Virus record (IMG/VR): IMGVR_UViG_3300025276_000021
From: a virus
Length of the DNA stretch: 64,000 nt
Reading direction: 5' to 3' (one strand)
Shown: positions 32,825 to 49,674 of the stretch, one piece after another
Layout of the letters: each line of letters begins with the position of its first letter
Numbering within the stretch: the stretch's first letter is position 1
Program-made: the position numbers and the translations under genes
Notes under the pieces: model-generated
The model's database searches: none
The model's input: only the letters and a program-made list of their open reading frames with translations
Told to the model about the DNA's origin: nothing

Positions 32825-35221
32825 TTAATCTCTTTCAATCTCGAAACTACCACTAATAGATACACCACTTCCTAAAGTACAATCTTCTGTAGTTGTTTCT
32901 TTAGTAGCATGACTGTATGTTCCTCCTTGATATATTACTCTTGGAGTTGCACCATGCAGAGCTTCTACATAATAATTTGCTGTTGGGGTAATACTTTCTG
33001 TCATATTGTACATATCAGTTTGATTCTGTAGTGTTCCTAGCCAAGTTTTTACATCTGACCATGTCCAATCTCTGTTTAATTCCAATATTGTAGCAATCAA
33101 TCCTGTCGCTACAGGAGTTGCAGCACTAGTGCCGCTGAATCTTCCATCTCTACTTACCGCAGGCGAACCAGTTTGTCCGTCACTCCAACTTGTACCACCA
33201 CTTTTACTCGCATATGTGTTATCATATCTAGGGATATCAGTACCATAATATCCGGGAATTGCAGCCAAAGTTCCGTCAGCTGGTGCAAACAGGTCTATAT
33301 TATTTCCCATATCGCTGTAATTTACTTTGCGCTCTTTTGTACCAGTAGCATACTGATCATCTAGACCGCCTACAATAATTACTGGACTTGTTCTATTTCC
33401 TGTCTGTACCTTTATAATACCCTGCATTGAGCTATGGGTGCCACAATTATAATAATACTGGTCACCAGTAAGAGTTGATTTCGTTCTCTGATTAGGTGTC
33501 CAACTACATGTACCGTACAGGGAGCCTTGTCCTGTTGCCGTGGGGTGATTTACTTGGTTTTGATGGCCAGTTCCACTATGATACTTGATATAAAAATTAT
33601 TAGGGCTGGGGGCACTTACATTAAAATTTACAGTATCGCCTCGATTAATATAAACAGTAGGATTGGTTCCGCTTACAGATCCGTTTCTGTCTGTGCCATT
33701 TAATTGCCAAGTGTTACTGCTAACTGATACTGAAATATTAAATGTTTGTGGATCTCCCCAAGTTGATCCTGCCTGTTGTGGGAAACCTGGTCTGTTTATA
33801 GTTGGCATTGCAAGTGTGCCATTGGCTGTCACTTGACCGTCTCCAAAATGTCCTGAATTGGTGGAATGCCAATAGTTATCATAGTCTGGATGATCCCATT
33901 TGACTTGTTTTTGATTGCTATTTCCTGCGGCAACAGTTGTAATAACACCAGCATCTATCATTTCCTTTGCGCTAGTGACCATGGCACTATCGAAAAATTC
34001 ACTTTTAATTCTACCTGAATCGCCGTAATTACCTATAAGGTTCATAAACGCTGGTGCGCCTGCTTTTGATGTAAAGTATATTCCTGAAGATATTCTATGA
34101 AATGCGTATGCTGTAGTTGGATGCCACGCTCTATATCCCCAACTATTTGAAGATATTGTTGGATCTTTAGTTCCGTATTTTGGATTTATAGGTTTTGCTA
34201 GATGGAATATTTTTTGAATGTCCCATATTTTATCAATTCCTGCACTCCGAGAACTAAATGCGTCAAGGACCCATTTGTTAGCATTATATGACCAGCCATG
34301 CGTTCTACCAAATAATTGACTTCCACACTGTGTACCATGTGTGGCATCATAGGGTAATGTGTTAAAATCTCCTAGTGTATTCTCTCTTGTACAGAGACTA
34401 GTTATAGATACTGTTCCGTAACTAGCGAAGGCAGAACTTCTACTACCTGTACTACCCCACCAACTTATAGCCGCAGCATTAGTTGGTACTGTAGTTCCGT
34501 CCCATCTGGTTTCTAGTCTAGTTCCTGGTGAAGCATTAAACCAATCTGGATCAATATAGTATGGACCATCATGCACAAGAGATAATAAATCAGAAATGCC
34601 ATCACCAGGCAATAAATTACCACCTACATAGTCTGTAGGCGACTCACCAGCTGGTCTATTATTGATAAATTCTATATGTCCTGCCCATGTACCGTTATCT
34701 GCAACTACTATATCAACATCTTTTCCCGTGCCGTATTTTTCAATATTTGAGTTCGTAGTGGTCGTATCGCTTGTCCATATATCTCTTTTATTCTTAGGTC
34801 CATTTTCTCTTGTAGTTCTTAACAACTGGTATCCACATCTACGCAAATCCGCACTAGTAGGGCTTGAAGGATAGTCAGACGCACTTGAGAACCGATTCCT
34901 GTGTTTAACTGGCTCGTTATATCTCCACGTAGTTTCTATTGAACAATGTAATTCATCAGAAGGTGGCTGAGTAAACTCTTCCCTGTAGTTATCTGGGTTT
35001 TTGTGTATAAACGCAATCTGAGGATTTTGTTCTAACTCTGCAGCTTCTTCCTCACTTAACCAAAATACACCTCTTGTAGGGCTGTGTAGTATATCATCTG
35101 TTTGACTAACTGCTCTTGCTACATAAGTTGGATCATCAGCATCACGCAAACTAACATCTAATGCATCATATTGTTCTTTTGTATGTGTACCTAATTGATA
35201 ATGAAATTCTGACATAATCAA
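32825..35221 (-). CDS. Subtilisin-like (S8) serine protease with inserted cupredoxin-like module
   Basis: Triad motifs VDIVVAD, THGTQC, GTSAATP and oxyanion AAGN; insert ending YYYNCGTHSSMQG. Start may be 35215. Confidence 0.85.
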   Translation of the reverse strand: MIMSEFHYQLGTHTKEQYDALDVSLRDADDPTYVARAVSQTDDILHSPTRGVFWLSEEEAAELEQNPQIAFIHKNPDNYREEFTQPPSDELHCSIETTWRYNEPVKHRNRFSSASDYPSSPTSADLRRCGYQLLRTTRENGPKNKRDIWTSDTTTTNSNIEKYGTGKDVDIVVADNGTWAGHIEFINNRPAGESPTDYVGGNLLPGDGISDLLSLVHDGPYYIDPDWFNASPGTRLETRWDGTTVPTNAAAISWWGSTGSRSSAFASYGTVSITSLCTRENTLGDFNTLPYDATHGTQCGSQLFGRTHGWSYNANKWVLDAFSSRSAGIDKIWDIQKIFHLAKPINPKYGTKDPTISSNSWGYRAWHPTTAYAFHRISSGIYFTSKAGAPAFMNLIGNYGDSGRIKSEFFDSAMVTSAKEMIDAGVITTVAAGNSNQKQVKWDHPDYDNYWHSTNSGHFGDGQVTANGTLAMPTINRPGFPQQAGSTWGDPQTFNISVSVSSNTWQLNGTDRNGSVSGTNPTVYINRGDTVNFNVSAPSPNNFYIKYHSGTGHQNQVNHPTATGQGSLYGTCSWTPNQRTKSTLTGDQYYYNCGTHSSMQGIIKVQTGNRTSPVIIVGGLDDQYATGTKERKVNYSDMGNNIDLFAPADGTLAAIPGYYGTDIPRYDNTYASKSGGTSWSDGQTGSPAVSRDGRFSGTSAATPVATGLIATILELNRDWTWSDVKTWLGTLQNQTDMYNMTESITPTANYYVEALHGATPRVIYQGGTYSHATKETTTEDCTLGSGVSISGSFEIERD

Positions 35222-37127: not shown

Positions 37128-38906
37128 TCATTTGCCGTGTACGTGATTTTTTGAACGCGGAAAAACTCCACCCGATACAGGTCTGTTTGCATAAACCCAG
37201 TTTGCTTTTGAGGGAAAGGCAATATCTTCTGTCGGTCTCTGATTGAACCATCGCAATATTAAATTTTTAGCGCCTTGCAAACTGCTCCGGTCATTAGGAT
37301 CATCTGCGCCAGTGTCGTGCATCAAGTCGGATTCACCATATTCATTTAACCAAACTCTTGCTTCTGCACAAGTCATATTTGGCCAGCTTTCAGCAAGACA
37401 TGCCAACACACCGCAAACTTGAGGTGCTGCCATACTGGTACCGTTCATTTTAGTCATAAAATAACTACTATTTCTTGGATCAGCTCCACCGGCTGAGCCA
37501 TAAGTGTTAGAAGTAACTGAACCCTGAATATGCATACCCGCCGCAAATACATCTACTCTGTTGCCGATATTACTAAACCAACTCTGACCTTCATCTGTAT
37601 CTGTTGACATTGCTCCAACTACAATAGGACTGTTGACTCCTTCACTAAACGGTTGACCACCACCTCTATGAGAATGTAGCGCATATGCAGTTCCACTTAT
37701 AGTAAATGTTGCAGTGTTATTATAATCTTGATCTGTAGAATCCACAATTTTCCAGCTTTGATTATCCGAGGAATTTGTCACAACAATACCAGCTTCTATC
37801 GCATCTTCCAGATCTGCAATACTTGCCGCACTCGAATAAGGTATTCTCAAAGCAGGGCTGCCGCCTGTTCGATGAACGCCATCTGGATAATACTGGGTAG
37901 GTACACCACGCTGGGCAAGACCAAGGGCGGTAAAACCTGTGCCAGACGTAACAGTACCTCTATAGTTCATTGAAGTAATTGGTCCGACATTGCCGGAATC
38001 TATAGAAAAAGCGGAATTGAAACTACAATTAATAACTGTAGGATTTTTTCTGCCAGTTGCAGCATTGATAGGCTTTTGAGTATGCCACACCCTTAAGTAG
38101 TCCCACATAAAAGATGAAATTGAACCAGAACCTGTGGTGGGATTTCCTGCAGTGCCGTCATTGGTAGCAATGCTAAATGGAGAGATATTATAGATATTTG
38201 CGTCTCTGGCCCAGCCTTGTGTATTACCAGCGACTGTAGATCCTACATGACAGCCATGATTGTTATTTGATGTATAAGTGGCAGTTACATAAGAACCGTT
38301 ATCAGAATATGGATATGATGTACCAAAAGAGCCACCAGGATGAGTACCATGATTAAACCAATTCTCTTGTATAACACGACTGCCGCCAGTTCCGTCTGCA
38401 TTTACAGCAAATTCGGGGTGTGCAGGATCAATGTGTCCATCTGCGATAACTACATCAACATTCTTGCCTGAGGCAGTTACCGTCAAATCTGCAGTTATCG
38501 ATCTTGTGTCGCTTGGCTCTCCACCCCAAGTATTAATCTGCGCACCAGAAGCATGTCTTAATAATCCCCAATTTCTATGAGTAGATACATGAGTAACAGC
38601 GAAACCGTTTGCTGCGCTCCAACCTGTCTTATGATAGTTTTGGTTAGTCGTAGCCCATCCGCTAGGTTGTATCGACATTTCGTTAAGTTCTCTTAATGTT
38701 ACATCCCAAACTCGTTCATCTTGTTTCAATGAATCTACTTCGGCATCGTCAAGCATGTAATGAGTATTACGACTTATTTCCCGTCGATGTTCGACACCTA
38801 CAGCTCTATCTGGAATATATAAATTTCCACCCGGCGTTTCCATATCTTCATAAAAAGTTTCCAAATCTTCTTTTCTATAAAGAGTAATTACCCATTCCCT
38901 AGTCAT
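37128..38906 (-). CDS. Subtilisin-like (S8) serine protease
   Basis: VDVVIADG, HGCHVGSTVAG, NGTSMAAPQV triad motifs; oxyanion region is SSDN rather than AAGN. Confidence 0.9.
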   Translation of the reverse strand: MTREWVITLYRKEDLETFYEDMETPGGNLYIPDRAVGVEHRREISRNTHYMLDDAEVDSLKQDERVWDVTLRELNEMSIQPSGWATTNQNYHKTGWSAANGFAVTHVSTHRNWGLLRHASGAQINTWGGEPSDTRSITADLTVTASGKNVDVVIADGHIDPAHPEFAVNADGTGGSRVIQENWFNHGTHPGGSFGTSYPYSDNGSYVTATYTSNNNHGCHVGSTVAGNTQGWARDANIYNISPFSIATNDGTAGNPTTGSGSISSFMWDYLRVWHTQKPINAATGRKNPTVINCSFNSAFSIDSGNVGPITSMNYRGTVTSGTGFTALGLAQRGVPTQYYPDGVHRTGGSPALRIPYSSAASIADLEDAIEAGIVVTNSSDNQSWKIVDSTDQDYNNTATFTISGTAYALHSHRGGGQPFSEGVNSPIVVGAMSTDTDEGQSWFSNIGNRVDVFAAGMHIQGSVTSNTYGSAGGADPRNSSYFMTKMNGTSMAAPQVCGVLACLAESWPNMTCAEARVWLNEYGESDLMHDTGADDPNDRSSLQGAKNLILRWFNQRPTEDIAFPSKANWVYANRPVSGGVFPRSKNHVHGK

Positions 38907-38910
38907 ATCT

Positions 38911-40281
38911 CTACACCTCTAGTGGTAGATATTCTAAATCTACCGTAATAGTATTAGAGCCGCTCGTAGGAAGATTTTTGATTGCCATATAAATTGTTGT
39001 CTGAGAACCTTCGTTCCAAGCAGGTACTGCAGGTGCAAAATTAATATAGCCACTTGCTCCACCAGCACTTGTTGGGTGCAAGATTTCTGCAATAACGCCT
39101 GAATTTGGCGCAGGATCAGTCAACTGTCCTCTAGAAGCATCAGCGGTTCTTGCAGCGCTGGATGTATAAATTCTTAGCCATGAAGTTGCAGATACTTGCG
39201 CCCGCAAGAGCATATATGCTTTAGGTGCACTCGTTATTTCAATGTTTAGGTTGGCACCGCTGGCAATTGAACCTGTTGTAATTGATGAAGTTGTTCTAGT
39301 ACCCCCAGCACCACCACCACCGCCGCCGCCTGCTGCAGAAACAAGCTTAGTTACATTATATGGAGAAACTAAAGTTTCTAATGTACTAGTTCCTGTTGCC
39401 CATACAGATGAATCTTGAATTGTTAATCTGCCGATATTAACTGCGCTATCACCAGCTAAGATTTTTGTTACATTAGTACTATCAAGAATATTTAAATTTG
39501 CGCCGCCAGAATCAATATGCCCTATTTTTGCCCATGCGGATCCAGAATCGCCTACATCATTTCGAATTTGTAAAAGATTTTTTGCATCGTCATACCAGAA
39601 AGTTCCGTTACTAAATGCAAGTGGAGCAGTAGAATCGACATAAATTTTGGGCAAGGTTAAACTCAGAAGTCCTTGTTCGTCTTGCAATTGACTTATATCT
39701 GTTGGTATAGGAACGTTGGTCTTGATCACCCCTGTCAGTTGCGAATATGCAATATTTGTACTGCCGCTTAAAGCACTCCTTGCCAATGAGTCTGTATAAT
39801 ATATGTTTGAAGTACCTTCAGGAACATCGTCAGAGACAAATCCTACTTGTGAATCTGCTAGTTGTCCATTTAAATTTTGAATATGTGGAATACGTGCCTT
39901 GTTGAATACGCCACTAGTCGTTTTATTTGCTGAAAGGTTTGGTATTCTAGCCACAGGAAAAACACCGCTCGTAATAGCAGCGGTTGATAGTGGACCTAAA
40001 TCTGATTGAGAAATTGTATTACAATTAAATTGCCAAGCACCGCTGTTAGAATCATATACAAGTGTTGTATGACTTCCTGTGCCACCTGAAGCAAGAGTTT
40101 GTAATGACCTTATTGTAGATGTAGTCACTTGTGGAGCAATTTCATTTATAGCAGAAACGATATCAGATTTGTTTGTAGTAAGCAATTGATCTGGCTCACC
40201 AACGTATGCGGACATAGAGTTGGTAGCTTGGCGCCAAGTTTCAATAGTATCTGTAAGATTAACTGAGATTTTTCTTGTCAT
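38911..40281 (-). CDS. Short fibre-like virion protein (456 aa), paralogue of the 395-aa protein
   Basis: DTIETWRQATN N-terminus, TSGVFxxARIP repeats, C-terminal WLRIYTSSAARTADASR...PAPNSGVIAEI domain. Confidence 0.7.
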   Translation of the reverse strand: MTRKISVNLTDTIETWRQATNSMSAYVGEPDQLLTTNKSDIVSAINEIAPQVTTSTIRSLQTLASGGTGSHTTLVYDSNSGAWQFNCNTISQSDLGPLSTAAITSGVFPVARIPNLSANKTTSGVFNKARIPHIQNLNGQLADSQVGFVSDDVPEGTSNIYYTDSLARSALSGSTNIAYSQLTGVIKTNVPIPTDISQLQDEQGLLSLTLPKIYVDSTAPLAFSNGTFWYDDAKNLLQIRNDVGDSGSAWAKIGHIDSGGANLNILDSTNVTKILAGDSAVNIGRLTIQDSSVWATGTSTLETLVSPYNVTKLVSAAGGGGGGGAGGTRTTSSITTGSIASGANLNIEITSAPKAYMLLRAQVSATSWLRIYTSSAARTADASRGQLTDPAPNSGVIAEILHPTSAGGASGYINFAPAVPAWNEGSQTTIYMAIKNLPTSGSNTITVDLEYLPLEV

Positions 40282-40312: not shown

Positions 40313-40320
40313 TATTTATA
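40313..40320 (-). promoter_or_regulatory. T4-type late promoter at the downstream edge of the radical SAM cluster
   Basis: TATAAATA overlapping the stop of the last cluster gene, about 30 nt upstream of ATG 40281. Confidence 0.85.
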
Positions 40321-40723
40321 TCTTTTCTAGTGCCATTTTAAACTCGTCCTCATAATATTTTCTCACATCTGGGACCATTCCAGTCATTTTTAGTGGAAAT
40401 GTTATTTGCTTTATAATATTTTCGTATGTCTTTATGTCTAAACTATACTGTACAAAATGGGGATCATTATCAGCTAATAGGTATTTATCATCTAATAACT
40501 CAAAGAAATTTTCATTAAAATCTTCAGATAGCCAAGACGCATAGCAGATCGCAACAAAATACGATTTTGCTGGATATACCCATTCGTCAATGTGTTCATT
40601 AAAATGCTTGACTGCCCATTTAACTGTATCGTCTGTCCAAGTAATATCTACTCTATTCAAATCATCTGTATGATGCTTATTAAGAAGATGATAAACTTGA
40701 CTCGCTATTTTCCAATCTTCCAT
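40316..40723 (-). CDS. Hypothetical protein, last gene of the radical SAM cluster
   Basis: ORF track starts it at 40777; ATG 40723 (MEDWKIA) minimises overlap. Distinctive EWVYPAKSYFVAICYA and NDPHFVQY motifs; family not recognised. Confidence 0.7.
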   Translation of the reverse strand: MEDWKIASQVYHLLNKHHTDDLNRVDITWTDDTVKWAVKHFNEHIDEWVYPAKSYFVAICYASWLSEDFNENFFELLDDKYLLADNDPHFVQYSLDIKTYENIIKQITFPLKMTGMVPDVRKYYEDEFKMALEKI

Positions 40724-41606
40724 ACCAGTCCAATAATCCTTTATATCCGTTACAGCCATTATCCAAATCCTTAACATATCTGTAATGTTCAGTTAAGCAG
40801 TTTCCAAAATATTCGCACGATGTACAGATTGGACTCATAGTTGCCTTTTCTTTTTTTGTCCAATCAATATAGTCTTCCCAACTATCTAACTCAAGAAAAT
40901 ATTCCCTATCTGCCTCATCAAATTCGAGTACACCAAATTTACCGTTTGGAGTAATGTATATATGATCGTCTGAGAATGCATTATATTTTTTATTATATGA
41001 ATCTTCTATTCTATCCCAATTTATAAATTGAAACTTCATATGTTCTTCTAACTCTAACCATTTTATAACAAAGTTCTCAAAATCTTTATGCGTCACAGTA
41101 TGGGCGTTAGCTTGATTGATTGAATATGGTTTAATTTCAACAGATTTTATAGAAGAACATAGATTCAACATATTGATCATTTCCATAACGTCTTTCTTTA
41201 GCACTTTTTCAGTAGCTAAAATTAGTACAGCTATTGGCCTAGTGCTTAACATCATATTTTGAAAAACTAGATCAGCTTTTTCTCTTGCTTCAAAATCATA
41301 AGATACTGCAAGATAAACGTCACTGTCTAAGAAACCTGGGTGCATCATAGAGTAATTTGTGTTGATATAAATAGTACCAGAATAGTGCTTTTTAATAATT
41401 TCTTTAACTCCATAGAAATAAGATTTTTTCATTGCTCCAATTTCGCCACCATATAAATCAATGTGTTCAATGTTCTGTACTTGAGACAACAATTCGTCTA
41501 GTTTATTCAACGAAATCTGTTTCTGGTTACCTAATTCTTCAGGTGTTAGATAGCAAAAGTCGCATCTAAAGTTGCAGAAGTATGTTGGATTTACTGATAC
41601 AATCAT
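40680..41606 (-). CDS. Radical SAM protein with short Cys-rich (twitch/SPASM-like) C-terminus
   Basis: CNFRCDFC, YGGEI, C-terminal CTSCEYFGNCLTEH...GC. Confidence 0.92.
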   Translation of the reverse strand: MIVSVNPTYFCNFRCDFCYLTPEELGNQKQISLNKLDELLSQVQNIEHIDLYGGEIGAMKKSYFYGVKEIIKKHYSGTIYINTNYSMMHPGFLDSDVYLAVSYDFEAREKADLVFQNMMLSTRPIAVLILATEKVLKKDVMEMINMLNLCSSIKSVEIKPYSINQANAHTVTHKDFENFVIKWLELEEHMKFQFINWDRIEDSYNKKYNAFSDDHIYITPNGKFGVLEFDEADREYFLELDSWEDYIDWTKKEKATMSPICTSCEYFGNCLTEHYRYVKDLDNGCNGYKGLLDWYGRLENSESSLSSS

Positions 41607-42229
41607 CGTATGTTAACAAGTTCTATGTCCATAGTAATTGTAAGTCTTTCATCATTACCGAAGTATGGAGTTACCTCATGCCAAACATGGGCAGGTATAA
41701 TTACTATAGAATTTTTTTCTGTTTGTATTTCGTGTTGCGGATTTGTTCTGGCTCGCACTGTATTATTAAAAGAAGGATCGTGCAAAATTAGCTTGCCTCC
41801 ATGCATATCATTATCTACAGAATCTAAGTAAAATACTGCAACCAATGCGTTACCTCTATGACAATGAATTTGTTTATAGTCGCCCCTTTTCATAAACGGC
41901 ATCTTGCCCATAGTTACTTGCATAGCATCATATACTTCCTCAAGTTCAGCACTCGGCTCATATTCTTGGAGAAGTTCTAAGAAAGAGACTGCAAAAAAAT
42001 TATACAGTCTAGTCATAAAAGGATAAGTTTTTAGATTGAAATCTGAGAACACGGGAACATTCTCTAATTCTCCAGCTTCCCTAAAACTTATTTTATTTTC
42101 AGCCATATATTGCATCATAAGAGCCTGACAAAAGGCTTTCAAAGATTCATTTTCATCATCTGTAAAATCTATCTTCGATCTAAATATTTTTGTTGGAAAT
42201 ATAGTTTCAATCATAATATTCTCTTTCAT
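41603..42229 (-). CDS. 2OG-Fe(II) oxygenase-like protein
   Basis: IFPTKIF start, HCH, AVFYL, GGKLILHDP, WHEVTP, RLTI; double-stranded beta-helix oxygenase pattern common in marine phages. Confidence 0.85.
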   Translation of the reverse strand: MKENIMIETIFPTKIFRSKIDFTDDENESLKAFCQALMMQYMAENKISFREAGELENVPVFSDFNLKTYPFMTRLYNFFAVSFLELLQEYEPSAELEEVYDAMQVTMGKMPFMKRGDYKQIHCHRGNALVAVFYLDSVDNDMHGGKLILHDPSFNNTVRARTNPQHEIQTEKNSIVIIPAHVWHEVTPYFGNDERLTITMDIELVNIR

Positions 42230-43244
42230 ATGGACTCACTTTAGCGTCAAGCCTATTTAGAGCAATAATATCGCTTGCCATTGATTTCATGTGTTGACAA
42301 TGATCTTCAACCATGTTATATTCTTTTAAGTCTTTTATAGTTTTTGAACACCCATTACATATCTCAAACATAGGACAAGAAAAACACGCTTTTTTTAAAC
42401 TCATTAAATTTATATCATTCTTTAATGGAGTTGTAAAGCCACCTTTCATTTCATAATCGAAATCAATAGCTTTGTCTAAATCGTCACCAAAAGCGCCACA
42501 AGAGTAGTAGTCACCTTCCGGCTGTATCGTGCGAATATGACTATCACAATCTCTGGCCTGCGGGCAGATCGTTACGCCGCCGCGTAATCGTTTCAACATC
42601 TGTTGAGTGTTATGTTCCCAGTCAGATAATCCAGCTTTCCAAATTTCGATATATCTTTCATAAATCTTAGATAGTCGATATGGCGCTGATTGTGACCCTG
42701 AAGCCATAGCATAATTCACTTTGCAAACTACGTCCATTTTCTTTGCTAATTCTACGGTCTTGACTGCTGTATGTTCGTTTTCTTCAACAATTACTGCAAT
42801 AAATGACGGTCTATATCCAACATGCTCTAACATTGCATCCGAACATTTCCAGAAATCTTCCTCTGTAAACTCACTATAATCGCCTTTAAGTCTACCGCCG
42901 CCATATTGAAAAGATGTTGAAACACCAACTCTACGATGATTAAATAATTCTTTCCATTTCATCGGTTTCATCAAGAACGGATACAAATTAGATGTAAGTG
43001 ATATCGTTGCCGGCATGTCATACTTATCAAGAAATTCTATGATTTTCCAATAGTAGTTAGGACGCATCATAAGAGGATCGCCGCCATTAACAATGATTGT
43101 TTTTGTATCTGGGAATCTATGCAAAAACTTAAAAATCTTATTCAAATCAAGTATAGCCGTATTATCATCTACGGTAATTTTAGATGAAGAACAAAAAGAA
43201 CATTTAAAATTACAAAGTTCTGTTGGCTTGAGGATTAAGTCCAT
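42207..43244 (-). CDS. Radical SAM/SPASM protein
   Basis: KPTELCNFKCSFC, NGGDP, CPQARDC...YYSC...CFSCPMFEICNGC...HC. Confidence 0.95.
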   Translation of the reverse strand: MDLILKPTELCNFKCSFCSSSKITVDDNTAILDLNKIFKFLHRFPDTKTIIVNGGDPLMMRPNYYWKIIEFLDKYDMPATISLTSNLYPFLMKPMKWKELFNHRRVGVSTSFQYGGGRLKGDYSEFTEEDFWKCSDAMLEHVGYRPSFIAVIVEENEHTAVKTVELAKKMDVVCKVNYAMASGSQSAPYRLSKIYERYIEIWKAGLSDWEHNTQQMLKRLRGGVTICPQARDCDSHIRTIQPEGDYYSCGAFGDDLDKAIDFDYEMKGGFTTPLKNDINLMSLKKACFSCPMFEICNGCSKTIKDLKEYNMVEDHCQHMKSMASDIIALNRLDAKVSPYEREYYD

Positions 43245-43777
43245 GGAGAATTTTTAATGTTAAAGCCAAAATTCATAGTAATTCTTTCCACGCAGGGCGC
43301 TCGAAAATGTTCGACCCTATGTTCAAATTTTAAATCTTGACTTGCTAATATAACATCGTATTTTCTTGGCATGTGAAACGCTGTAATTCTTTTGTTTTCT
43401 TCCATATTTCTAAACATGATTTCTCCACCGTTATTAGGGTCCATGTCTGTAAAGTATAATAGAAAAAATACATTAGCTCCTTCTAGTAGATCGTTATGCC
43501 AGTTACAAGAGGACTGCTCGGTGCCATTCCAAATAGAAGAATAGACTATTTTTCTTGCGTTCTCACTGCTATCATATTCTTGCAAGTATGTGTCGTAAAG
43601 TAGATTTGCAGTTTTAATCATTTTCTGTCGCATGCCTTGTAAGTAATAATTCCATGCGACACTAAAAGTTTTTTTGTCGCCATATCTCATATTAAACCAT
43701 TTGAGTTTCGGAATAGTATCCTCAACATGGACAAACATATCTGATCTATTACTTAAAGTATATCCTTCATCTCTCAT
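43235..43777 (-). CDS. 2OG-Fe(II) oxygenase
   Basis: WHND (HxD), LLYF, GGEIMF, EHRV, ERIT: facial triad plus 2OG-binding Arg. Confidence 0.88.
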   Translation of the reverse strand: MRDEGYTLSNRSDMFVHVEDTIPKLKWFNMRYGDKKTFSVAWNYYLQGMRQKMIKTANLLYDTYLQEYDSSENARKIVYSSIWNGTEQSSCNWHNDLLEGANVFFLLYFTDMDPNNGGEIMFRNMEENKRITAFHMPRKYDVILASQDLKFEHRVEHFRAPCVERITMNFGFNIKNSPWT

Positions 43778-44351
43778 TCGCTTCCCTCACCCAGTAATAT
43801 TCGTTTCTCTCAAAACCCATTCGTTTCATTAGTCTGCAATCATAAGGACTATGTGGTATTCTGTAATAGTTCATAGTTGAGTATATATATTCAAGCATTA
43901 GACCCGAAGGACAAATTATTTTTTTGTTGCCTAACAATTTTATTATATCTTGCCACTGTTGCTTCAAAAATTGTTGAGCTTCACTTTTAGATTTTTTATT
44001 CATATAACCTACATTTCCAATTCTACCTATTATCACTTCATTTTTAAAAATATGTGCCATGCATATTGCCTTTTCGAGTTTTTTATCACTATCGCAATGA
44101 GGCATTGTAGGTTCACTTTTTTTAGAAATCATACAATCTTCGTATATCTCAGGATCACTTTCTTTTGTGCCATACCAAATAAAAAAGTGTGCTTGTCTAG
44201 GAGAAATTCTAACCACAAACGGATGCTGTATGGGTAAAATATCTAATTTAACATCAATGTAATTAGGCAGATCAATATCAAGAGATTGCGCTGGCTCTTT
44301 GTAATCGTACATTGTCGATATATCTGTGCGTAATTTTGTAGACACATTCAT
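43767..44351 (-). CDS. Hypothetical protein in the radical SAM cluster
   Basis: Coupled ORF between enzyme genes; true start may be the later MYDYKEP. Ends MKRMGF, weakly reminiscent of GNAT folds. Confidence 0.65.
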   Translation of the reverse strand: MNVSTKLRTDISTMYDYKEPAQSLDIDLPNYIDVKLDILPIQHPFVVRISPRQAHFFIWYGTKESDPEIYEDCMISKKSEPTMPHCDSDKKLEKAICMAHIFKNEVIIGRIGNVGYMNKKSKSEAQQFLKQQWQDIIKLLGNKKIICPSGLMLEYIYSTMNYYRIPHSPYDCRLMKRMGFERNEYYWVREANER

Positions 44352-45333
44352 CTAAAACTTCCTCTGCGTGTTTATAGTCATGCGACATAAAACAGCCTAG
44401 AGTACATCTTTGAAAATACTCACATGTAGAACAGTTATATTTTTCTACAAATGCCTTTTCTATAGGAGTATTATCCATAGGTTGTATATCTGTTTTATAC
44501 ATTGCTTTATCATCAGGCTCTTGAACTAAGTTTCCACATAGACACATAGTTCCATCTTCCAACACAAGTTTTGATGATCTGCAACTAATGCAGTTTTTTT
44601 CATTTTCAATCCAAGAACGAATAGGATCAATTTTAGGGTAGTTATCTATAAAGTGTTTGAATATATTCAGCATGTCTTGGTCTGATGGTGCGCTTCTTTT
44701 CGCTTGACAATCTGGCATATAATAGTCTGCGTATAGATAAATGCCATCGTCATATAGTTGACGTAAAACTCCCTCTGTCTCTTTTAACCAAAATTTTATA
44801 TTCGGCCTAGTGAGCAAAATACCAATACCATCTAACTCATCTTTAAAGTATTTGATATTTTCTAAGAATATTGCTAAATTCGGTTTATTGAATCTGCCAG
44901 CAGGGTCGTATGAAGTAACAAGTTTACTTTTTATGCCATGAGAACGACAATATGAAAGCAAATCATTAATTTGGTCTCTTTTACTTACCACTAAATTAGT
45001 GACCCAATTAATTCTTGTTTTTTTATTATATTTTTTTCCTAATTCTCCAATACCTTTGGCGAGATCCTTATAATCAGAGAATAGAGATGAATTGAATATC
45101 TCATCTGCAAAAATTTCTCCACCCATGATATTAAATACAACATTGATTCTATTTTCAGTTTTTAGAAAATCTTCTATGGGAACAAGTTTATCTAATACAG
45201 TATCAATTCCTACAATGTTATCGTGATTTTGCCAGCAGAATGGACAAGATAGATTGCAAAATTCGAATAGATGTATAGTGTATTCTTGCTGAGAGTCTCG
45301 CTTATCTCTTAATATAAAGTCACTCAGTTCCAT
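44278..45333 (-). CDS. Radical SAM/SPASM-like protein
   Basis: CNLSCPFC, MGGEI, CISC...CLC...CSTCEYFQRCTLGC...EC. Confidence 0.93.
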   Translation of the reverse strand: MELSDFILRDKRDSQQEYTIHLFEFCNLSCPFCWQNHDNIVGIDTVLDKLVPIEDFLKTENRINVVFNIMGGEIFADEIFNSSLFSDYKDLAKGIGELGKKYNKKTRINWVTNLVVSKRDQINDLLSYCRSHGIKSKLVTSYDPAGRFNKPNLAIFLENIKYFKDELDGIGILLTRPNIKFWLKETEGVLRQLYDDGIYLYADYYMPDCQAKRSAPSDQDMLNIFKHFIDNYPKIDPIRSWIENEKNCISCRSSKLVLEDGTMCLCGNLVQEPDDKAMYKTDIQPMDNTPIEKAFVEKYNCSTCEYFQRCTLGCFMSHDYKHAEEVLDECVYKITHRYIDNVRLQRASAIS

Positions 45334-45994
45334 TTAATGTGTCCGCTGAAATACCCCAAGTTAGTATGAACATGGGATTGTTTTCGTGCGCCCAGAAACT
45401 ATACATGCCTTTTCCTCCAAACATATAGTCGTTAAAGTATTTTGAATAATATTTTAGATTATCAGTTTCTACAGAATTGTAATAGTAAAAAAATCTTTTG
45501 TTTTTGAGGAGACTGACGAAATTTATCCCTTTAATATCATCTGTAGGATCTTCAGGGTGATCAGTAACAAATTTTTTCAAGTCATCGTCCTGTATGATAT
45601 ACATATTATATAAAGTTAGAGAATCTAGTTTAGACGTAAAATTTTTCAATTCTTCCCGATGATCTTCAATAAACTTTGCAATACAAGGATAACATTGATC
45701 GACAATAACTGGAAGCTTTTTGTATATCAATAAAATGTCAATTAATACATTTTCCAAAACATCTATATTTAATATCTGAGTAAATTTCAAATAGTGAGAT
45801 GCCAATTCAAATAAATCGCTTTCTCCTATTTTAATATCGCAAGGTATTTCTAAATTGCTAAGGTATACAAGTAAACTTTCGCCTTGCAATTTTGAATTTT
45901 CGTAGTCAATTAAAAATTTAGTTTCCTTGTCTGTAAAATATTTTTTTAAATCTTCAATACCCAAAGGGGCTGTTACCATAATAATTTCGCTCAT
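45320..45994 (-). CDS. Hypothetical protein in the radical SAM cluster
   Basis: ORF track starts it at 46063; ATG 45994 (MSEIIMVTAP) follows an AGGAG site and avoids overlap. Family not recognised. Confidence 0.75.
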   Translation of the reverse strand: MSEIIMVTAPLGIEDLKKYFTDKETKFLIDYENSKLQGESLLVYLSNLEIPCDIKIGESDLFELASHYLKFTQILNIDVLENVLIDILLIYKKLPVIVDQCYPCIAKFIEDHREELKNFTSKLDSLTLYNMYIIQDDDLKKFVTDHPEDPTDDIKGINFVSLLKNKRFFYYYNSVETDNLKYYSKYFNDYMFGGKGMYSFWAHENNPMFILTWGISADTLNGTE

Positions 45995-46001
45995 AATATA
46001 A

Positions 46002-46829
46002 TTATCTCCTACCTCTTGCCGAGTGACATGACGAGTGGCATGATGAATGACACACACTCTCACTAATGCTTATTCCACTTCCTAAATTAGCTACACTAAA
46101 CCATGCATCATAAAAATTCTGAAAAAGTTCTTCTAATTTTTCGTCTGTCAGTAAATCGTTTTGTGCAATTGGATTTGCAACATCAGAAGAATCGATTTCA
46201 AAACCATATTTATGATGTAAGATTGCAAAACCACTTGCTGTGACTGATGTATTTACACGCGCCGCACGGCGTAATTCTGTACTATATTTAATAGTTGCAA
46301 TAGCGCAGTAATGTTGCAAAAATTCATGTGTTAAAGGAGAACCATCATCATCCACTGTTGGACCATATACGTTATGAGTAACTTTAAATGCTTCCCTAGC
46401 CACATCTGAGATAAAAACAACATCGCCTGTTCTTGCGCTGTTTGCGTCTGTAGTACATGCTATTTGCCAATCGCAAGCAAAATTTCTATTTAATAGTGCG
46501 GCTGCGGTCGCTGCTGGGCTTTTCGCTGGAAGAGAGATATTGCCGCCAGGGCCTTGAACAATTCTTGTAAAATTGATTTTTCTAACCCGTGTATATTGAT
46601 TAACATCTTTCAGTAAAGCATTATAGATATCTTGAGCAGTTATTGGAGAATCTTTCAGATCTGGTATAGATGTTATTCCGGTAGTCGTACTACCATACAA
46701 GGATGGCAATAAGGTAGGTGCAGGTGATGTATTTTCTCCGTAGACGATATGATTATTTATTCTGTCTGTAACAAATTCTTTATATTTTGTTAGTGTCGGA
46801 TTTTCTGTTGCTGGGTTACTGATTGCCAT
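46002..46829 (-). CDS. Putative substrate/precursor protein with C-terminal (CHSS)n-RGRR tail
   Basis: AGGAG site; ends SVCHSSCHSSCHSARGRR; sits among radical SAM genes. The ORF is solid, the role is inferred. Confidence 0.7.
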   Translation of the reverse strand: MAISNPATENPTLTKYKEFVTDRINNHIVYGENTSPAPTLLPSLYGSTTTGITSIPDLKDSPITAQDIYNALLKDVNQYTRVRKINFTRIVQGPGGNISLPAKSPAATAAALLNRNFACDWQIACTTDANSARTGDVVFISDVAREAFKVTHNVYGPTVDDDGSPLTHEFLQHYCAIATIKYSTELRRAARVNTSVTASGFAILHHKYGFEIDSSDVANPIAQNDLLTDEKLEELFQNFYDAWFSVANLGSGISISESVCHSSCHSSCHSARGRR

Positions 46830-46838
46830 TGTTATCTC

Positions 46839-47882
46839 CTAGACATTTTTTGCCAATTCCATCATTAAGCTCTTAGGAGCTCCACAAATATCTTTTTCCC
46901 ATCCTAGCTGATGGCAATCGCCGCCACAAAATTTCGAAACTGGACAGGAATAGCATAATGGATTTCTCATCTTTTCTTCAATAATATTTCGTATTCTCTT
47001 AGGACTATTTATAAGAGTTTGTATGCTATCATCTAAGTTACCGAATTGAAATTCTGGCGCACTGTTCGGACAACCACTAATTGTTCCATCACCATTTATA
47101 GTGAATAATTTTTCTTCACAATCACGACAAAACGTGCCGCATTTTGTCTGAGTCTTTTCAAACTTAGAATACACATTTTCAAGAAAATCGTTGTCAAACC
47201 AATCTCTCGCACCATACTTTTCACTCTGCATATGCATTTTTAAAAAGTAGGCATCAAGTTCTTTGTTAGATGGAAATATCTCTGATGCATTTCTAGCATT
47301 GCCATTATTCGTAAGACGTTCTAAAGATACCTCTTGAACACCTAATCTACGGCACCATCTTAGCAATGTAATGGGATCTTTTTCAAGAGTATCTTTAGTC
47401 AAACTAATAAACAAACGTATAGTAATACCTTGACTTAATAATGTCTTGACATTTTTGTGCCATAAGCTATATTGTTTATTATTATCGAAACGAATTTTAC
47501 GATCCCAAGACGTGCCAAGTCTACTATTCAGAGGACCTTTGATAAAATCAATATGCTGATCTTTTAATTTGAATACTAGATTAGTTGTTGCACCCCAACT
47601 CATACGATCCCAGAGACCATCACATGCATCATACACTTTACGCATTTGACCTACAGGTACAAGAAAAGGTTCACCTCCGTGAAACTCCATGTGTATGCTA
47701 TCGTATGTCGCATCTCTTGGTCTATGAGATGCAAGGTGTGCTTCTTTTCTAAATCTATGAATCCAATCAATTATCTTATTTGGATTCCAATAGATTTTTG
47801 CACCATTACTACCGCTTGTAAAGCAGTGGGCACAATTCAGTTGACAGGTTTCTGTTGTTTTTAGGTACATTAACCAATTCAT
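46839..47882 (-). CDS. Radical SAM/SPASM protein
   Basis: KTTETCQLNCAHC, FHGGEP, CGTFCRDC...GC...CYSCPVSKFCGGDC...C. Confidence 0.95.
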   Translation of the reverse strand: MNWLMYLKTTETCQLNCAHCFTSGSNGAKIYWNPNKIIDWIHRFRKEAHLASHRPRDATYDSIHMEFHGGEPFLVPVGQMRKVYDACDGLWDRMSWGATTNLVFKLKDQHIDFIKGPLNSRLGTSWDRKIRFDNNKQYSLWHKNVKTLLSQGITIRLFISLTKDTLEKDPITLLRWCRRLGVQEVSLERLTNNGNARNASEIFPSNKELDAYFLKMHMQSEKYGARDWFDNDFLENVYSKFEKTQTKCGTFCRDCEEKLFTINGDGTISGCPNSAPEFQFGNLDDSIQTLINSPKRIRNIIEEKMRNPLCYSCPVSKFCGGDCHQLGWEKDICGAPKSLMMELAKNV

Positions 47883-48355
47883 ATTATGTTTTCTATATAA
47901 TCTTCAAGAGAAAAACTGAGAGTCAGGGCTTCACTATTATTAAATGCTTGGTGAAGAGTTCCTGAAGGAATATGAAAATACTCTCCTGAATTTATATCAT
48001 GCATAATACCATTCATTTCAATAGTTTTAGTTCCCTCACAACAGTAAATAATAACATCAAAAGGATCTGTATGAGGCTTAAAAGAAGGAGATCCTTTTTT
48101 GGCGTAAAATAAATGACATGTTACTGGACCTTCTGTATGATTATATTTTTTAGCAAGAGCAAGACATTCCTCATTCATAGTCCGACTGAAATTTTCCATT
48201 CGTTCTATTTTTATAGTATTATTTGAATTTTTTAGAACTTCACTAAAGTTGTGTGCTTTGTGTTCTTTGCCATCAAAATCAACAAAAAATACAGCATTTT
48301 GGTCATATAAAAGTGAATTTTGTAATATAGATAAAACAGTAGTTAAAGTAAACAT
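47879..48355 (-). CDS. JmjC/cupin-type oxygenase (YcfD/ROX-like core)
   Basis: SFKPHTD..DV...EGTKT...GEYFHIPSGTLHQA...LSF matches the HxD...H JmjC pattern. Confidence 0.8.
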   Translation of the reverse strand: MFTLTTVLSILQNSLLYDQNAVFFVDFDGKEHKAHNFSEVLKNSNNTIKIERMENFSRTMNEECLALAKKYNHTEGPVTCHLFYAKKGSPSFKPHTDPFDVIIYCCEGTKTIEMNGIMHDINSGEYFHIPSGTLHQAFNNSEALTLSFSLEDYIENII

Positions 48356-48383: not shown

Positions 48384-48412
48384 ATTATATAGCATAAAAA
48401 TATATTTGTCAA
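48384..48412 (-). promoter_or_regulatory. Consensus sigma70 (early-type) promoter for the radical SAM cluster
   Basis: Minus strand TTGACA (48412-48407), 17 nt, TATAAT (48389-48384), then GAAAGGG and ATG 48355. Confidence 0.9.
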
Positions 48413-48427
48413 CCATTATTTTAGGGG

Positions 48428-48455
48428 TTGACATTTCTGAAAATTCTGTTATAAT
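48428..48455 (+). promoter_or_regulatory. Divergent consensus sigma70 promoter, antisense to structural genes
   Basis: TTGACA (48428-48433), 16 nt, TATAAT (48450-48455) preceded by TGn. Confidence 0.75.
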
Positions 48456-48486: not shown

Positions 48487-49674
48487 TTAAAGTTTCAATA
48501 CACATTCTACAAGCTTTTCTTCAATAGAAGTATTTGTTTCTAAAGCAACTCCTACAATAGCAGCGCCATCATACTCTTTAGATGCACAACCATTATTGTG
48601 AGCATACAAAGTTTCACCTTTACTTACAGCACCAACAACTCTTACTGGAACACGACCTTTTAGCGCAAGAGCCTGACCTTCTGTATCTGCATTCATAAGA
48701 AATGCGGGTTTTAATGATATCACTCCTATAGGCAATCCAAATACATTACACTCATCAGTTTCAGCCTCATCAGTCACAGACACTTTCATAACCGTGCCAA
48801 CAGGATATTCTATATCAGTTGTATATTTTTCTGCGAGGTCAGCGAAGTTTGCAGACGTAGCTAAACCGTAAAATGTGTGAGCATATACGCCCTTAAGTTT
48901 AGCACCTGTTGAACCAATATCGTATAGATTATCGTTAGCTGATTGAATAGTCATATCAGCATTTATTTCCATACTATCATTTAAGCTAACAGGTCCGTTG
49001 AAAATAACTGTACCCGTGTTTGTAAAAGTGTTAGTGTTGCTCATTGTTCTAGATGCTGTTACATTAGCGGCTACATTTGACCTTTCAAAAACAGAAGGAA
49101 TAACATCAGCAGGAATGTCTGTACCATCATCTGTTATCATGCTAGAAGGAATATTGGGTATTCTATCGATTAAAAATATTCCTGATGTTATCTTACTAGT
49201 TGCAAGTGATGGTATTCTATCCTCGTGAAATTGTCCCATTGTAGTTTGGTTAGCATTTAAGTATGGTAATCTAGCTATAGCTATAGTTCCTGTAGTAATG
49301 TTAGACGCATCAAAATTAGGAAGTAAAGCAGGATTAAAAGTACCGGTTGTAATTTTACCTGCATCTAATGCAGGAATATCGCCCTGAGTCAGCGCCCTTC
49401 TTACAAAAGTAAAGACGCCTGTTGCTGCAGAATAACTTAGTTCGCAATACGTGCCGCCGCCAGATGTTGTCGCACTTAATTGATTTTTAGCAAGTTGAAG
49501 CGTAGATCCGCCAATATTAGTTTTAGTTTCTATAGAATTTATAGCACTAACTATACTTGAACTATCCGCTGTAGTAAGTGCGTCCAAATCTCCAATATAT
49601 GTTCCTAAAAGATTCGTCTTTTCTCGCCAACCGTTAACTGTGCTTGAGAGGTCTACATTTACAATTCTGGGCAT
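48487..49674 (-). CDS. Fibre-like protein with C-terminal autocleaving-chaperone-like domain (395 aa)
   Basis: STVNGWREKTN N-terminus, five DAxKITxGxFxxxR(I/L)P repeats, ADLAEKY...IGVIS..PAFLMN...LALKGRVPVRV tail resembling peptidase G2-type chaperones. Confidence 0.75.
   Translation of the reverse strand: MPRIVNVDLSSTVNGWREKTNLLGTYIGDLDALTTADSSSIVSAINSIETKTNIGGSTLQLAKNQLSATTSGGGTYCELSYSAATGVFTFVRRALTQGDIPALDAGKITTGTFNPALLPNFDASNITTGTIAIARLPYLNANQTTMGQFHEDRIPSLATSKITSGIFLIDRIPNIPSSMITDDGTDIPADVIPSVFERSNVAANVTASRTMSNTNTFTNTGTVIFNGPVSLNDSMEINADMTIQSANDNLYDIGSTGAKLKGVYAHTFYGLATSANFADLAEKYTTDIEYPVGTVMKVSVTDEAETDECNVFGLPIGVISLKPAFLMNADTEGQALALKGRVPVRVVGAVSKGETLYAHNNGCASKEYDGAAIVGVALETNTSIEEKLVECVLKL

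Follow-up and report, generated by a model that had tools for sequence, protein, structure and literature searches.

A widespread phage gene cassette of radical-SAM enzymes and iron oxygenases is linked to a protein with an invariant Cys-His-x-Ser tail

The stretch of viral DNA analysed here (IMG/VR record IMGVR_UViG_3300025276_000021; 64,000 nucleotides, hereafter the window) is a segment of a T4-like myovirus with genes for a terminase, baseplate hub and wedge, a giant DUF4815 protein, fibres and subtilases. On its minus strand, between positions 40316 and 48355, lies a cassette of eleven packed genes that encode four radical S-adenosylmethionine (radical-SAM) enzymes, three iron oxygenases (one cupin and two 2-oxoglutarate (2OG) oxygenases), three orphan proteins and a 275-aa protein with a repetitive Cys-His-x-Ser (CHxS) tail. 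We assign a probability of about 0.6 to the reading that this cassette serves specifically to mature the tail of a virus-particle protein in large phages. The reading is based on the similarity of the enzymes to peptide and protein maturases, the invariance of the tail, a linkage between tail gene and enzyme genes that holds in both directions, the presence of the homologous protein gp170 in virions of phage Atu_ph07, the position of the cassette within structural modules, and its promoters. That the tail is the substrate, and which chemistry, timing and location in the particle apply, we infer.

The 275-aa protein ends in VCHSSCHSSCHSARGRR, which agrees with the (CHSS)x3-like ending described in an initial annotation of the window, and its last 16 residues follow the pattern (Cys-His-x-Ser)x3-Arg-Gly-Arg-Arg. 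A word-indexed search returned 35 relatives. Searching 1.84 billion cluster representatives with a profile enlarged the family to 857 clusters (defined at 50% identity) at E <= 1e-3, of which 597 were found at E <= 1e-10. Among 29 aligned homologues the carrier domain in front of the tail has a mean identity of 24%, and the only invariant columns are C260, H261, C264, H265, C268, H269, R272, R274 and R275. CHxxCHxxCHxxRxRR forms the exact C-terminal end of 132 of the 148 top cluster representatives. The tail Cys and His residues and the three invariant Arg residues are unchanged in all 79 distinct nucleotide versions, while their codons vary (TGT/TGC, CAT/CAC, AGR/CGN) and the Ser codons switch even between AGY and TCN. 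Fixed residues with varying synonymous codons indicate selection at the level of the peptide and not of the DNA. Position four of each unit is occupied by Ser, more rarely by Asn or Ala. Read from the His residues, the tail consists of three H-x-S/N units, each with a Cys before it, followed by the basic RGRR; the third residue of these units is Ser in 77/79 versions in the first, Ser or Asn in 79/79 in the second, and Ser, Asn or Ala in 79/79 in the third.

AlphaFold predicts a moderately confident alpha/beta carrier (predicted local distance difference test (pLDDT) of 68) and a disordered tail. No fold match to this model was found in the PDB, BFVD returned only the protein's own family, and the VIA rows covered only a low-confidence helical insert (residues 97-189). 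The protein has no Pfam or NCBIfam domain, and its N-terminus (MAISNPATEN...) shows no signal-like hydrophobic stretch as judged by eye. An AGGAGA Shine-Dalgarno sequence is located 7 nt ahead of the ATG. No longer fused forms were found, which is weak evidence. One cluster representative of 453 aa (P0069) joins a Gly-rich, fibre-like N-terminal region of 270 residues to the tail-protein domain; it may be a real fibre fusion or a gene-calling artefact.

To describe the linkage, gene order was compared in 86 loci (78 from IMG/VR, three metagenome contigs, four cultured-phage loci and the window), all of which were ascertained via the tail. The order cupin, rSAM_A, tail protein, P (names as in Table 1) is present in 68 of them, and rSAM_B, rSAM_C, rSAM_D and X153 follow P in fixed order across loci. 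Radical-SAM genes occur in 83/86 loci, most often four per cassette. In the reverse direction, 61 loci that had been found through rSAM_C had enough flanking sequence; a canonical tail gene lies upstream in 52 of these and on the other strand within 10 kb in another five. With 57/61 loci carrying the tail gene, the co-occurrence with a CHxS-tailed protein that the initial annotation had proposed as a check is borne out. Its idea of a dedicated pathway is likewise in agreement with our data, which support a dedicated, co-inherited unit around the CHxS-tailed protein with association in both directions.

Fifteen cultured jumbo-phage records encode both rSAM_C and the phrog_20767 protein. Atu_ph07, RSF1, Phosso and DT01 share the order cupin, radical-SAM gene, tail protein, phrog_20767 protein, radical-SAM gene and onwards, and their tails are near-identical. 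The gene sets are gp165-172 in Atu_ph07, ORF069-082 in RSF1, gp70-82 in FLC6 and gp054-067 in pPa_SNUABM_DT01, with ORF071 as the RSF1 tail protein. Relatives often carry an extra B12-type radical-SAM enzyme and further oxygenases. In the RSF1 group an HNH endonuclease gene and two DHFR-like genes interrupt the cassette (ORF076-078; L001, 10330-11619) and a GIY-YIG nuclease gene precedes it; these genes look like mobile insertions and not like parts of the pathway. A variant group (L061, L063, L066, L067, L075-L079, L081, L083, L084) has two tandem short tail proteins of 126-140 aa, no cupin, and rSAM_B, X153 and rSAM_D on the opposite strand. The flanking ORFs of 340-420 aa in this group are missed by radical-SAM profiles, and L061 and L075 have 5 ORFs with an N-terminal CxxxCxxC near the tail gene.

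Outside phage collections, a scan of 185,579 species genomes gave three loci only. One of them (L086, 7716-8306, on a 208-kb contig binned as Gemella) encodes a tail protein that ends in CHSSCHSNCHHR, without RGRR. Its neighbours are four or five radical-SAM genes, P and a fibre-like gene, a gene content suggestive of a jumbo-phage lineage from the gut or the oral cavity. The explanation that all three matches are mis-binned phage contigs is wrong for the one in a Bdellovibrionaceae metagenome-assembled genome, since the same contig has COX1, FtsX, FabH, SecA and a histidine kinase in the flanks and is thus chromosomal. A search of 201 genomes of the same order yielded a second chromosomal case, G138, with a complete cassette on a 299-kb contig and a GC content of 32% compared to 36-38% in the flanks. 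The gene order is shuffled in both bacterial chromosomes. In G138 the cassette neighbours a PilQ-type secretin, a prepilin peptidase, a pilin-like S74 protein, CarB and LepA, and this locus links the cassette to a second kind of cell-attack fibre. Amid the PilQ/PilD genes, a 348-aa protein (L176, 18097-19143; G138:C4) has both a type IV pilin N-methylation motif and a Peptidase_S74 phage-fibre chaperone domain.

A whole-cassette megablast against phage records gave no match. The same was true for tblastn of the 275-aa protein, a result that is misleading since 15 of those records hold homologues. Jumbo-phage papers merely list the cassette genes as cupin, Fe-S oxidoreductase, radical SAM and 2OG oxygenase, and one proposes a role in DNA repair or as a metabolic boost; none of them ties the genes to the tail protein or to the virion. 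In the literature on the motif and on radical-SAM pathways for ribosomally synthesised and post-translationally modified peptides (hereafter RiPPs) in phages, no functional study was found. The same cassette is thus already annotated in jumbo-phage genomes, and the system is undescribed in the searchable literature.

Independent evidence for a virion component comes from Atu_ph07. In its published virion proteome (Attai et al. 2018, PMC6102473, Supplementary Table S5), Gp170 has a mass of 31.89 kDa, and the mass computed for the Atu_ph07 tail protein is 31.89 kDa as well. With 8 unique peptides covering 35% of the sequence, Gp170 occurred in gel bands 1-9 and peaked in band 1, at the top of the gel, which is also where 76-139 kDa proteins peak; other 30-kDa proteins peak in bands 7-8 (PMC6102473). 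The fibre homologue gp176 was detected in the same virions, and none of the cassette enzymes was among the virion proteins (PMC6102473). The other jumbo-phage papers contain no proteomics on the tail protein. A modified virion component was one of two outcomes considered in the initial annotation; gp170 independently supports its presence in the particle, and its modification we infer.

All four radical-SAM proteins carry CxxxCxxC within the first 33 residues, beginning at C13 in rSAM_A (CQLNCAHC), C26 in rSAM_B (CNLSCPFC), C11 in rSAM_C and C11 in rSAM_D (CNFRCDFC). All four match phrog_1802 ('radical SAM domain-containing protein') with E-values of 1e-30 to 3e-58 (8e-44 for rSAM_B, 1e-30 for rSAM_D). 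Motif and family matches place the four in the radical-SAM superfamily, as initially described. The Pfam model Radical_SAM (PF04055, cut-off 29.5) is passed by rSAM_C with 33.3; rSAM_B and rSAM_D are just below (26.6 and 26.7) and rSAM_A has no Pfam match. Cys-rich C-termini had been ascribed to all four enzymes. They were found in rSAM_A, rSAM_B and rSAM_C, which have 7-9 extra C-terminal Cys residues in a SPASM-like pattern (nine in rSAM_B; the 7-Cys SPASM signature contains CxxCx5Cx3C), while rSAM_D carries a reduced form with only four (261, 264, 270, 285) and is for this reason classified as twitch-like. The SPASM domain model TIGR04085 (cut-off 27) is passed by rSAM_A with 35.5 and not reached by rSAM_C with 22.4.

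Except for this domain model, no curated NCBIfam cut-off is reached by any cassette enzyme. The best named families for rSAM_A and rSAM_C are anSME, DynA, PapB and CbpB, all of them peptide or protein maturases and all far under cut-off. Orthologue profiles of both enzymes align over their full length with anSME, with E-values of 3e-8 (rSAM_A, structure 4k37) and 1e-4 (rSAM_C); weaker matches are the unnamed radical-SAM protein 8vpo, CteB, ChlB and, over the N-terminal core only, MoaA. Matches to MoaA, NrdG and viperin are confined to the generic radical-SAM core (the first 60-110 residues for MoaA and viperin). Clustering with nucleotide or cofactor families, which would have spoken against the initial annotation, was not seen. 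These comparisons support a resemblance to SPASM families that modify peptides or proteins and not to families that act on nucleotides or cofactors. rSAM_C shares 53-61% identity with its jumbo-phage orthologues and has 338 related stretches in IMG/VR, and the rSAM_B orthologue keeps the same relative position across loci.

The predicted oxygenases also belong to known families. The cupin passes both Cupin_2 (34.8, cut-off 27.2) and JmjC_2 (31.9, cut-off 22) of Pfam, consistent with its initial description as JmjC-like, and has the iron-triad residues H95-x-D97 (HTD at 95-97) and H135. Its homologues occur in 69/86 loci, always immediately before rSAM_A. For the two proteins that had been called 2OG-Fe(II) oxygenases, the assignment holds fully for the 208-aa protein, which passes 2OG-FeII_Oxy_5 (PF13759; 37.2, cut-off 27) and matches phrog_81 with an E-value of 1e-19. 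The 180-aa protein falls just short of the cut-off of 27 for 2OG-FeII_Oxy_3 (24.8 bits, E 4.5e-5) but carries an HxD motif (H94-N-D96); its family is present in 51/86 loci. By family-model scores and iron-site residues, the set as a whole falls among the 2OG-Fe(II) and JmjC cupin oxygenases.

Three cassette proteins have no known fold or function. P matches phrog_20767 (E 9e-57), is present in 84/86 loci and gives a confident predicted model (pLDDT 89, predicted template modelling score 0.86) for which no fold match was found, the best VIA Z being 4.7 over 54 residues; it has 504 unnamed relatives, none with a Pfam domain. X194 has no family match in Pfam, PHROGs or NCBIfam, and its homologues, found in 18/86 loci, always follow rSAM_B; its start codon is uncertain (74-nt overlap). 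X153 matches phrog_20737 (E 3e-36, beginning at residue 19) and is located right after rSAM_D in all of the 66/86 loci that contain it. Pfam, NCBIfam and the ESM Atlas gave no lead for X153, and the ESM Atlas gave none for P. As stated in the initial annotation, no transporter or peptidase family was detected in the cassette by Pfam and NCBIfam scans.

The cassette is located in baseplate, spike or fibre modules across unrelated lineages. A homologue of the fibre gene upstream of the cassette in the window is present in 64/86 loci and lies directly before the cassette in most of these. In the DT01-like lineage, central-spike and PAAR-type genes are the neighbours instead of a fibre gene. The downstream fibre protein of the window is 34% identical to the upstream one over the N-terminal 150 aa (E 5e-22). 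Further downstream, two S8 subtilase genes (37128-38906 and 32825-35221, both on the minus strand) alternate with fibre genes. The 592-aa one of the two was rejected as a cassette member, as a homologue was found in only 1/86 related loci. At 14158-29586 (minus strand), inside the structural region, lies one 5142-aa ORF, and an 1851-aa ORF comes after it.

Promoter motifs were examined at both the cassette start and the tail gene. The perfect sigma-70 promoter that had initially been reported upstream of the cassette is present with 12/12 positions. Among the loci with a cupin gene, 13/69 have a sigma-70 promoter with at least 11/12 positions upstream of it, compared to 3/345 background windows, and all 13 belong to the marine T4-like clade of the window. 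The T4 late promoter reported downstream of the cassette, TATAAATA, is found at 40313-40320 (minus strand), 32 nt ahead of the ATG of the downstream fibre gene. The 8-mer is not enriched over the window as a whole (11 found, 10.5 expected). Within 300 nt upstream of the tail gene it occurs in 47/75 distinct loci (63%), compared to 22/750 background windows (3%), mostly at 163-222 nt and inside the 3' end of rSAM_A. In the window, this copy overlaps the codons for L-I-N-S, residues that are not conserved among rSAM_A orthologues. The motifs suggest that the enzymes would be transcribed by the host polymerase and that the substrate gene would receive a late boost. The conserved late-promoter motif ahead of the tail gene weakens the other outcome considered initially, an early anti-host effector. 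Back to back with the cassette promoter, at 48428-48455 on the plus strand, is a second perfect promoter (TTGACA-16-TATAAT, extended -10 TG); it faces into the upstream fibre gene in antisense and is not followed by a plus-strand gene.

The coordinates are summarised in Table 1. All eleven minus-strand ORFs were found in the ORF list as first described, tightly packed and mostly overlapping; with the initial start calls, the overlap between adjacent ORFs reaches at most 98 nt and the gap at most 9 nt. Family matches make later start codons probable for two genes: position 45994 for the phrog_20767 gene, which shortens its product from 247 to 224 aa, and position 40723 for the last gene, with 135 instead of 153 aa. 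With these starts, most of the long overlaps disappear.

Table 1. Coordinates of the cassette genes, promoter motifs and flanking genes in the window.
Feature	Position	Strand	Remarks
Sigma-70 promoter TTGACA-17-TATAAT	48384..48412	-	12/12 consensus positions, just upstream of the cupin gene
Cupin/JmjC-like Fe(II) oxygenase, 158 aa, first cassette gene	47879..48355	-	Pfam Cupin_2, JmjC_2
rSAM_A, radical SAM/SPASM, 347 aa	46839..47882	-	the tail protein always follows immediately
TATAAATA, T4-type late promoter motif	47006..47013	-	inside rSAM_A 3' end, 177 nt before the tail-protein start
CHxS-tail protein, 275 aa, candidate substrate	46002..46829	-	variable alpha/beta carrier and invariant 16-residue C-terminal tail
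Tail: CHSS-CHSS-CHSA-RGRR, then stop codon	46005..46052	-	codon comparison, 79 distinct nucleotide versions
P, phrog_20767 protein, 224 aa	45320..45994	-	always directly downstream of the tail protein
rSAM_B, radical SAM/SPASM, 351 aa	44278..45333	-	CNLSCPFC motif; phrog_1802
X194, orphan with five Cys, accessory, not universal	43767..44351	-	no family match
2OG-Fe(II) oxygenase-like, 180 aa	43235..43777	-	2OG-FeII_Oxy_3 sub-cut-off; HxD motif
rSAM_C, radical SAM/SPASM, 345 aa	42207..43244	-	most conserved enzyme of the cassette
2OG-Fe(II) oxygenase, 208 aa	41603..42229	-	2OG-FeII_Oxy_5; phrog_81
rSAM_D, radical SAM with reduced 4-Cys C-terminal cluster motif, 308 aa	40680..41606	-	phrog_1802
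X153, phrog_20737 protein, about 135 aa, conserved last gene	40316..40723	-	phrog_20737
Upstream tail-fibre gene, 395 aa, conserved left neighbour	48487..49674	-	phrog_19602 (tail fibre protein) matched by the C-terminal half
Downstream tail-fibre gene, 456 aa, paralogue of the upstream fibre	38911..40281	-	N-terminal similarity

Assuming that the cassette matures a particle protein, the 275-aa protein would be that protein and its unstructured C-terminal tail the substrate of the neighbouring enzymes. Hydrogen abstraction from tail residues by the four radical-SAM enzymes would lead to covalent changes. Candidates are thioethers at Cys, C-C links from His to Ser of the triceptide or HxsA kind, and oxidation of Cys or Ser as in anSME. 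The cupin and the two 2OG oxygenases might add oxygen-dependent tailoring, and the phrog_20767 and phrog_20737 proteins could be accessory factors of unknown fold. The enzymes would be expressed from the host-type sigma-70 promoter and the substrate gene from its own late promoter in addition, so that a late pulse of substrate would meet enzymes already loaded with clusters. The finished protein would then join the fibre or baseplate part of the particle. A more specific version, which we put forward only tentatively, is that HxsA-like chemistry turns the Cys/His/Ser tail into a covalently cross-linked knot, possibly metal- or DNA-binding, on the cell-attack fibre of large phages and a few predatory bacteria.

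Among characterised systems, the bacterial HXS antiphage defence comes closest (Li et al., Nat Commun 2026, PMC13128918). Its radical-SAM enzymes HxsB and HxsC, together with HxsD, mature HxsA, a protein with five His-x-Ser repeats in which a covalent change of +8 Da was mapped to S-H-R-S-S; the basic repeats of HxsA bind DNA and block phage DNA entry (PMC13128918). Both systems pair repeated His-x-Ser units with dedicated radical-SAM enzymes, and the phage tail has three H-x-S/N units and the basic RGRR. The tandem His-Xaa-Ser feature of the HXS effector is thus found in the phage tail, with the difference that each His follows an invariant Cys, unlike in HxsA. However, with the HXS family models (TIGR03976-03979) the cassette enzymes score 29.9 bits against 370 for HxsB (TIGR03978) and 29.5 against 267.9 for HxsC (TIGR03977), over the generic N-terminal core only, and no HxsD-like protein was found among the cassette proteins. 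Further differences are the position of the phage motif at the extreme C-terminus of a protein with no Pfam peptidoglycan-binding domain and no signal-like N-terminus by eye, the four or more enzymes plus oxygenases of the phage cassette, and its being phage-encoded and virion-associated, whereas HXS is a host periplasmic defence. The cassette may operate in a similar way to HXS, though it does not belong to this family. A PADLOC search of the cassette gave no defence-system match, only generic radical-SAM-core matches to viperin models (18-32 bits) and matches to 2OG models.

With anSME (PDB 4k37) and QhpD the cassette enzymes share a radical-SAM core that begins at the N-terminus, a C-terminal SPASM domain and the absence of a RiPP recognition element (RRE); no N-terminal extension of RRE size was found on rSAM_A. 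anSME acts on Cys or Ser and QhpD makes Cys thioethers, both within whole proteins and not in short peptides. With 40.1 bits for rSAM_A and 35 for rSAM_C, the anSME family model (TIGR03942, cut-off 349) is not reached. The anSME motif C/S-x-P/A-x-R is not present as such in the phage tail, as the last unit, C-H-S-A-R, has Ser where Pro or Ala is needed, and the phage cassette differs from both systems in bringing four paralogous enzymes together.

The radical-SAM RiPP classes (ranthipeptides including SCIFF/CteB, sactipeptides, triceptide cyclophanes, CXXX-repeat and Cys-every-fifth peptides) resemble the cassette in having Cys-rich or aromatic-x-x repeat cores beside SPASM maturases. Weak matches below cut-off were obtained to PapB, CteB (5wgg), the CXXX-repeat maturase TIGR04115 and the cyclophane synthases FxsB, XyeB and YhhB. 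The cassette also has a precursor with a core beside the enzymes, namely a variable carrier with an invariant 16-residue core flanked by rSAM_A and P. On the other hand, no leader peptidase or exporter family was found, the folded carrier of 170-260 aa appears to be retained and the core is invariant and not hypervariable, and the product is apparently in the virus particle. The label 'RiPP-like' of the initial annotation therefore fits loosely: its precursor and enzyme arrangement stands, and for the release of a free peptide the family scans gave no candidate enzyme, though one could be among the three proteins of no known fold or function.

Several points weigh against a maturation system for a particle protein. 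The synteny of the 86 loci was ascertained via the tail, and only the jumbo-phage search with rSAM_C and P and the reverse test with rSAM_C are free of this bias. With polyethylene glycol as the only purification step, a few replication proteins were also found in the Atu_ph07 particles, and contamination could account for gp170 as well. As the published loading buffer lists no reducing agent, the high gel position of gp170 could also be due to ordinary disulfides of its three Cys residues. None of the cassette enzymes has an N-terminal RRE-like domain for substrate recognition, and all of them stay below the curated family cut-offs, which allows several candidate chemistries. The late-promoter motif lies within the rSAM_A coding sequence, and its independence from the encoded residues was judged in the window only. 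Modification of the tail remains a prediction.

The Cys and His residues might instead serve directly as a metal site. In this case, the three Cys-His pairs of each chain, perhaps assembled in an oligomer, would bind Fe or Zn at a fibre or spike tip without modification, and the enzymes would act elsewhere. Iron coordinated by His is known from the tip of T4 gp37 and the spike apex of P2 and phi92, the cassette adjoins spike, PAAR and fibre genes, gp170 migrates as a very large species in sodium dodecyl sulfate polyacrylamide gel electrophoresis as stable fibre oligomers do, and apart from Arg only Cys and His side chains are invariant. We nevertheless consider an unmodified site unlikely. It leaves the two-way linkage of 4-6 SPASM radical-SAM enzymes to the tail gene unexplained, as well as the conserved Ser/Asn at the fourth unit position and the terminal RxRR, and the carrier is predicted to be globular alpha/beta and not fibrous, with a disordered tail. 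Metal binding and modification are compatible with each other. Equally doubtful is a true RiPP or peptide-derived cofactor, for which a core of about 16 residues would be modified and cut from the carrier to give a free metallophore, redox cofactor or anti-host compound. The precursors of PQQ and mycofactocin have such an invariant C-terminal core next to SPASM enzymes, some relatives of the cassette add a B12-type radical-SAM enzyme as proteusin-like pathways do, and a peptidase could be hidden among the several cassette proteins of unknown fold. However, the scans revealed no family of peptidases, exporters or immunity proteins, the carrier, detected in virions with 35% coverage, is a folded domain that is kept across 857 clusters, and a late promoter ahead of its gene suits a structural protein.

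It seems very improbable that the enzymes act on a non-protein substrate such as phage DNA, nucleotides or a host molecule, with the tail protein as a donor of Fe-S clusters or metal or as an enzyme scaffold. The DHFR genes that interrupt the RSF1 cassette would fit with this, but none of the other cassettes examined has DHFR or HNH genes. The N-terminal radical-SAM cores do score weakly with MoaA, NrdG and viperin models, yet for MoaA and viperin these matches span the generic first residues, and the full-length alignments go to anSME. A phage with 4-6 multi-cluster enzymes would have a high demand for Fe-S clusters; an enzyme scaffold would not be expected in virions that lack the enzymes. 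Maturation of the tail of a particle protein remains the reading we prefer.

Our data show that the cassette is widespread, annotated without function in published jumbo phages and present in predatory bacteria. The 857 clusters of the family indicate a single, fixed target of 16 residues and a constant core of four enzymes. The family spans marine T4-like phages and soil and clinical jumbo phages, with an echo in predatory bacteria, and the cassette costs its carriers 8-11 kb of genome. Cultured phages of Agrobacterium, Ralstonia, Burkholderia, Sinorhizobium and Pseudomonas are available for direct study. Radical-SAM enzymes are known to mature small peptides, a few cellular enzymes and, since 2026, one antiphage effector; we know of no case in virus particles. 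The cassette probably modifies a virus-particle protein chemically in a way that no paper describes. If the cross-linked tail on the attack fibre is real, it would be the first case of a virion structural protein with a radical-SAM post-translational modification, and a chemistry shared by phage and host may then act on either side of the DNA-entry step. A modified tail would mean a new enzyme chemistry on Cys-His-x-Ser units and an extra layer of virion assembly, and it might offer a handle on cell contact or entry of large phages and a possible connection to the HXS defence of their hosts.

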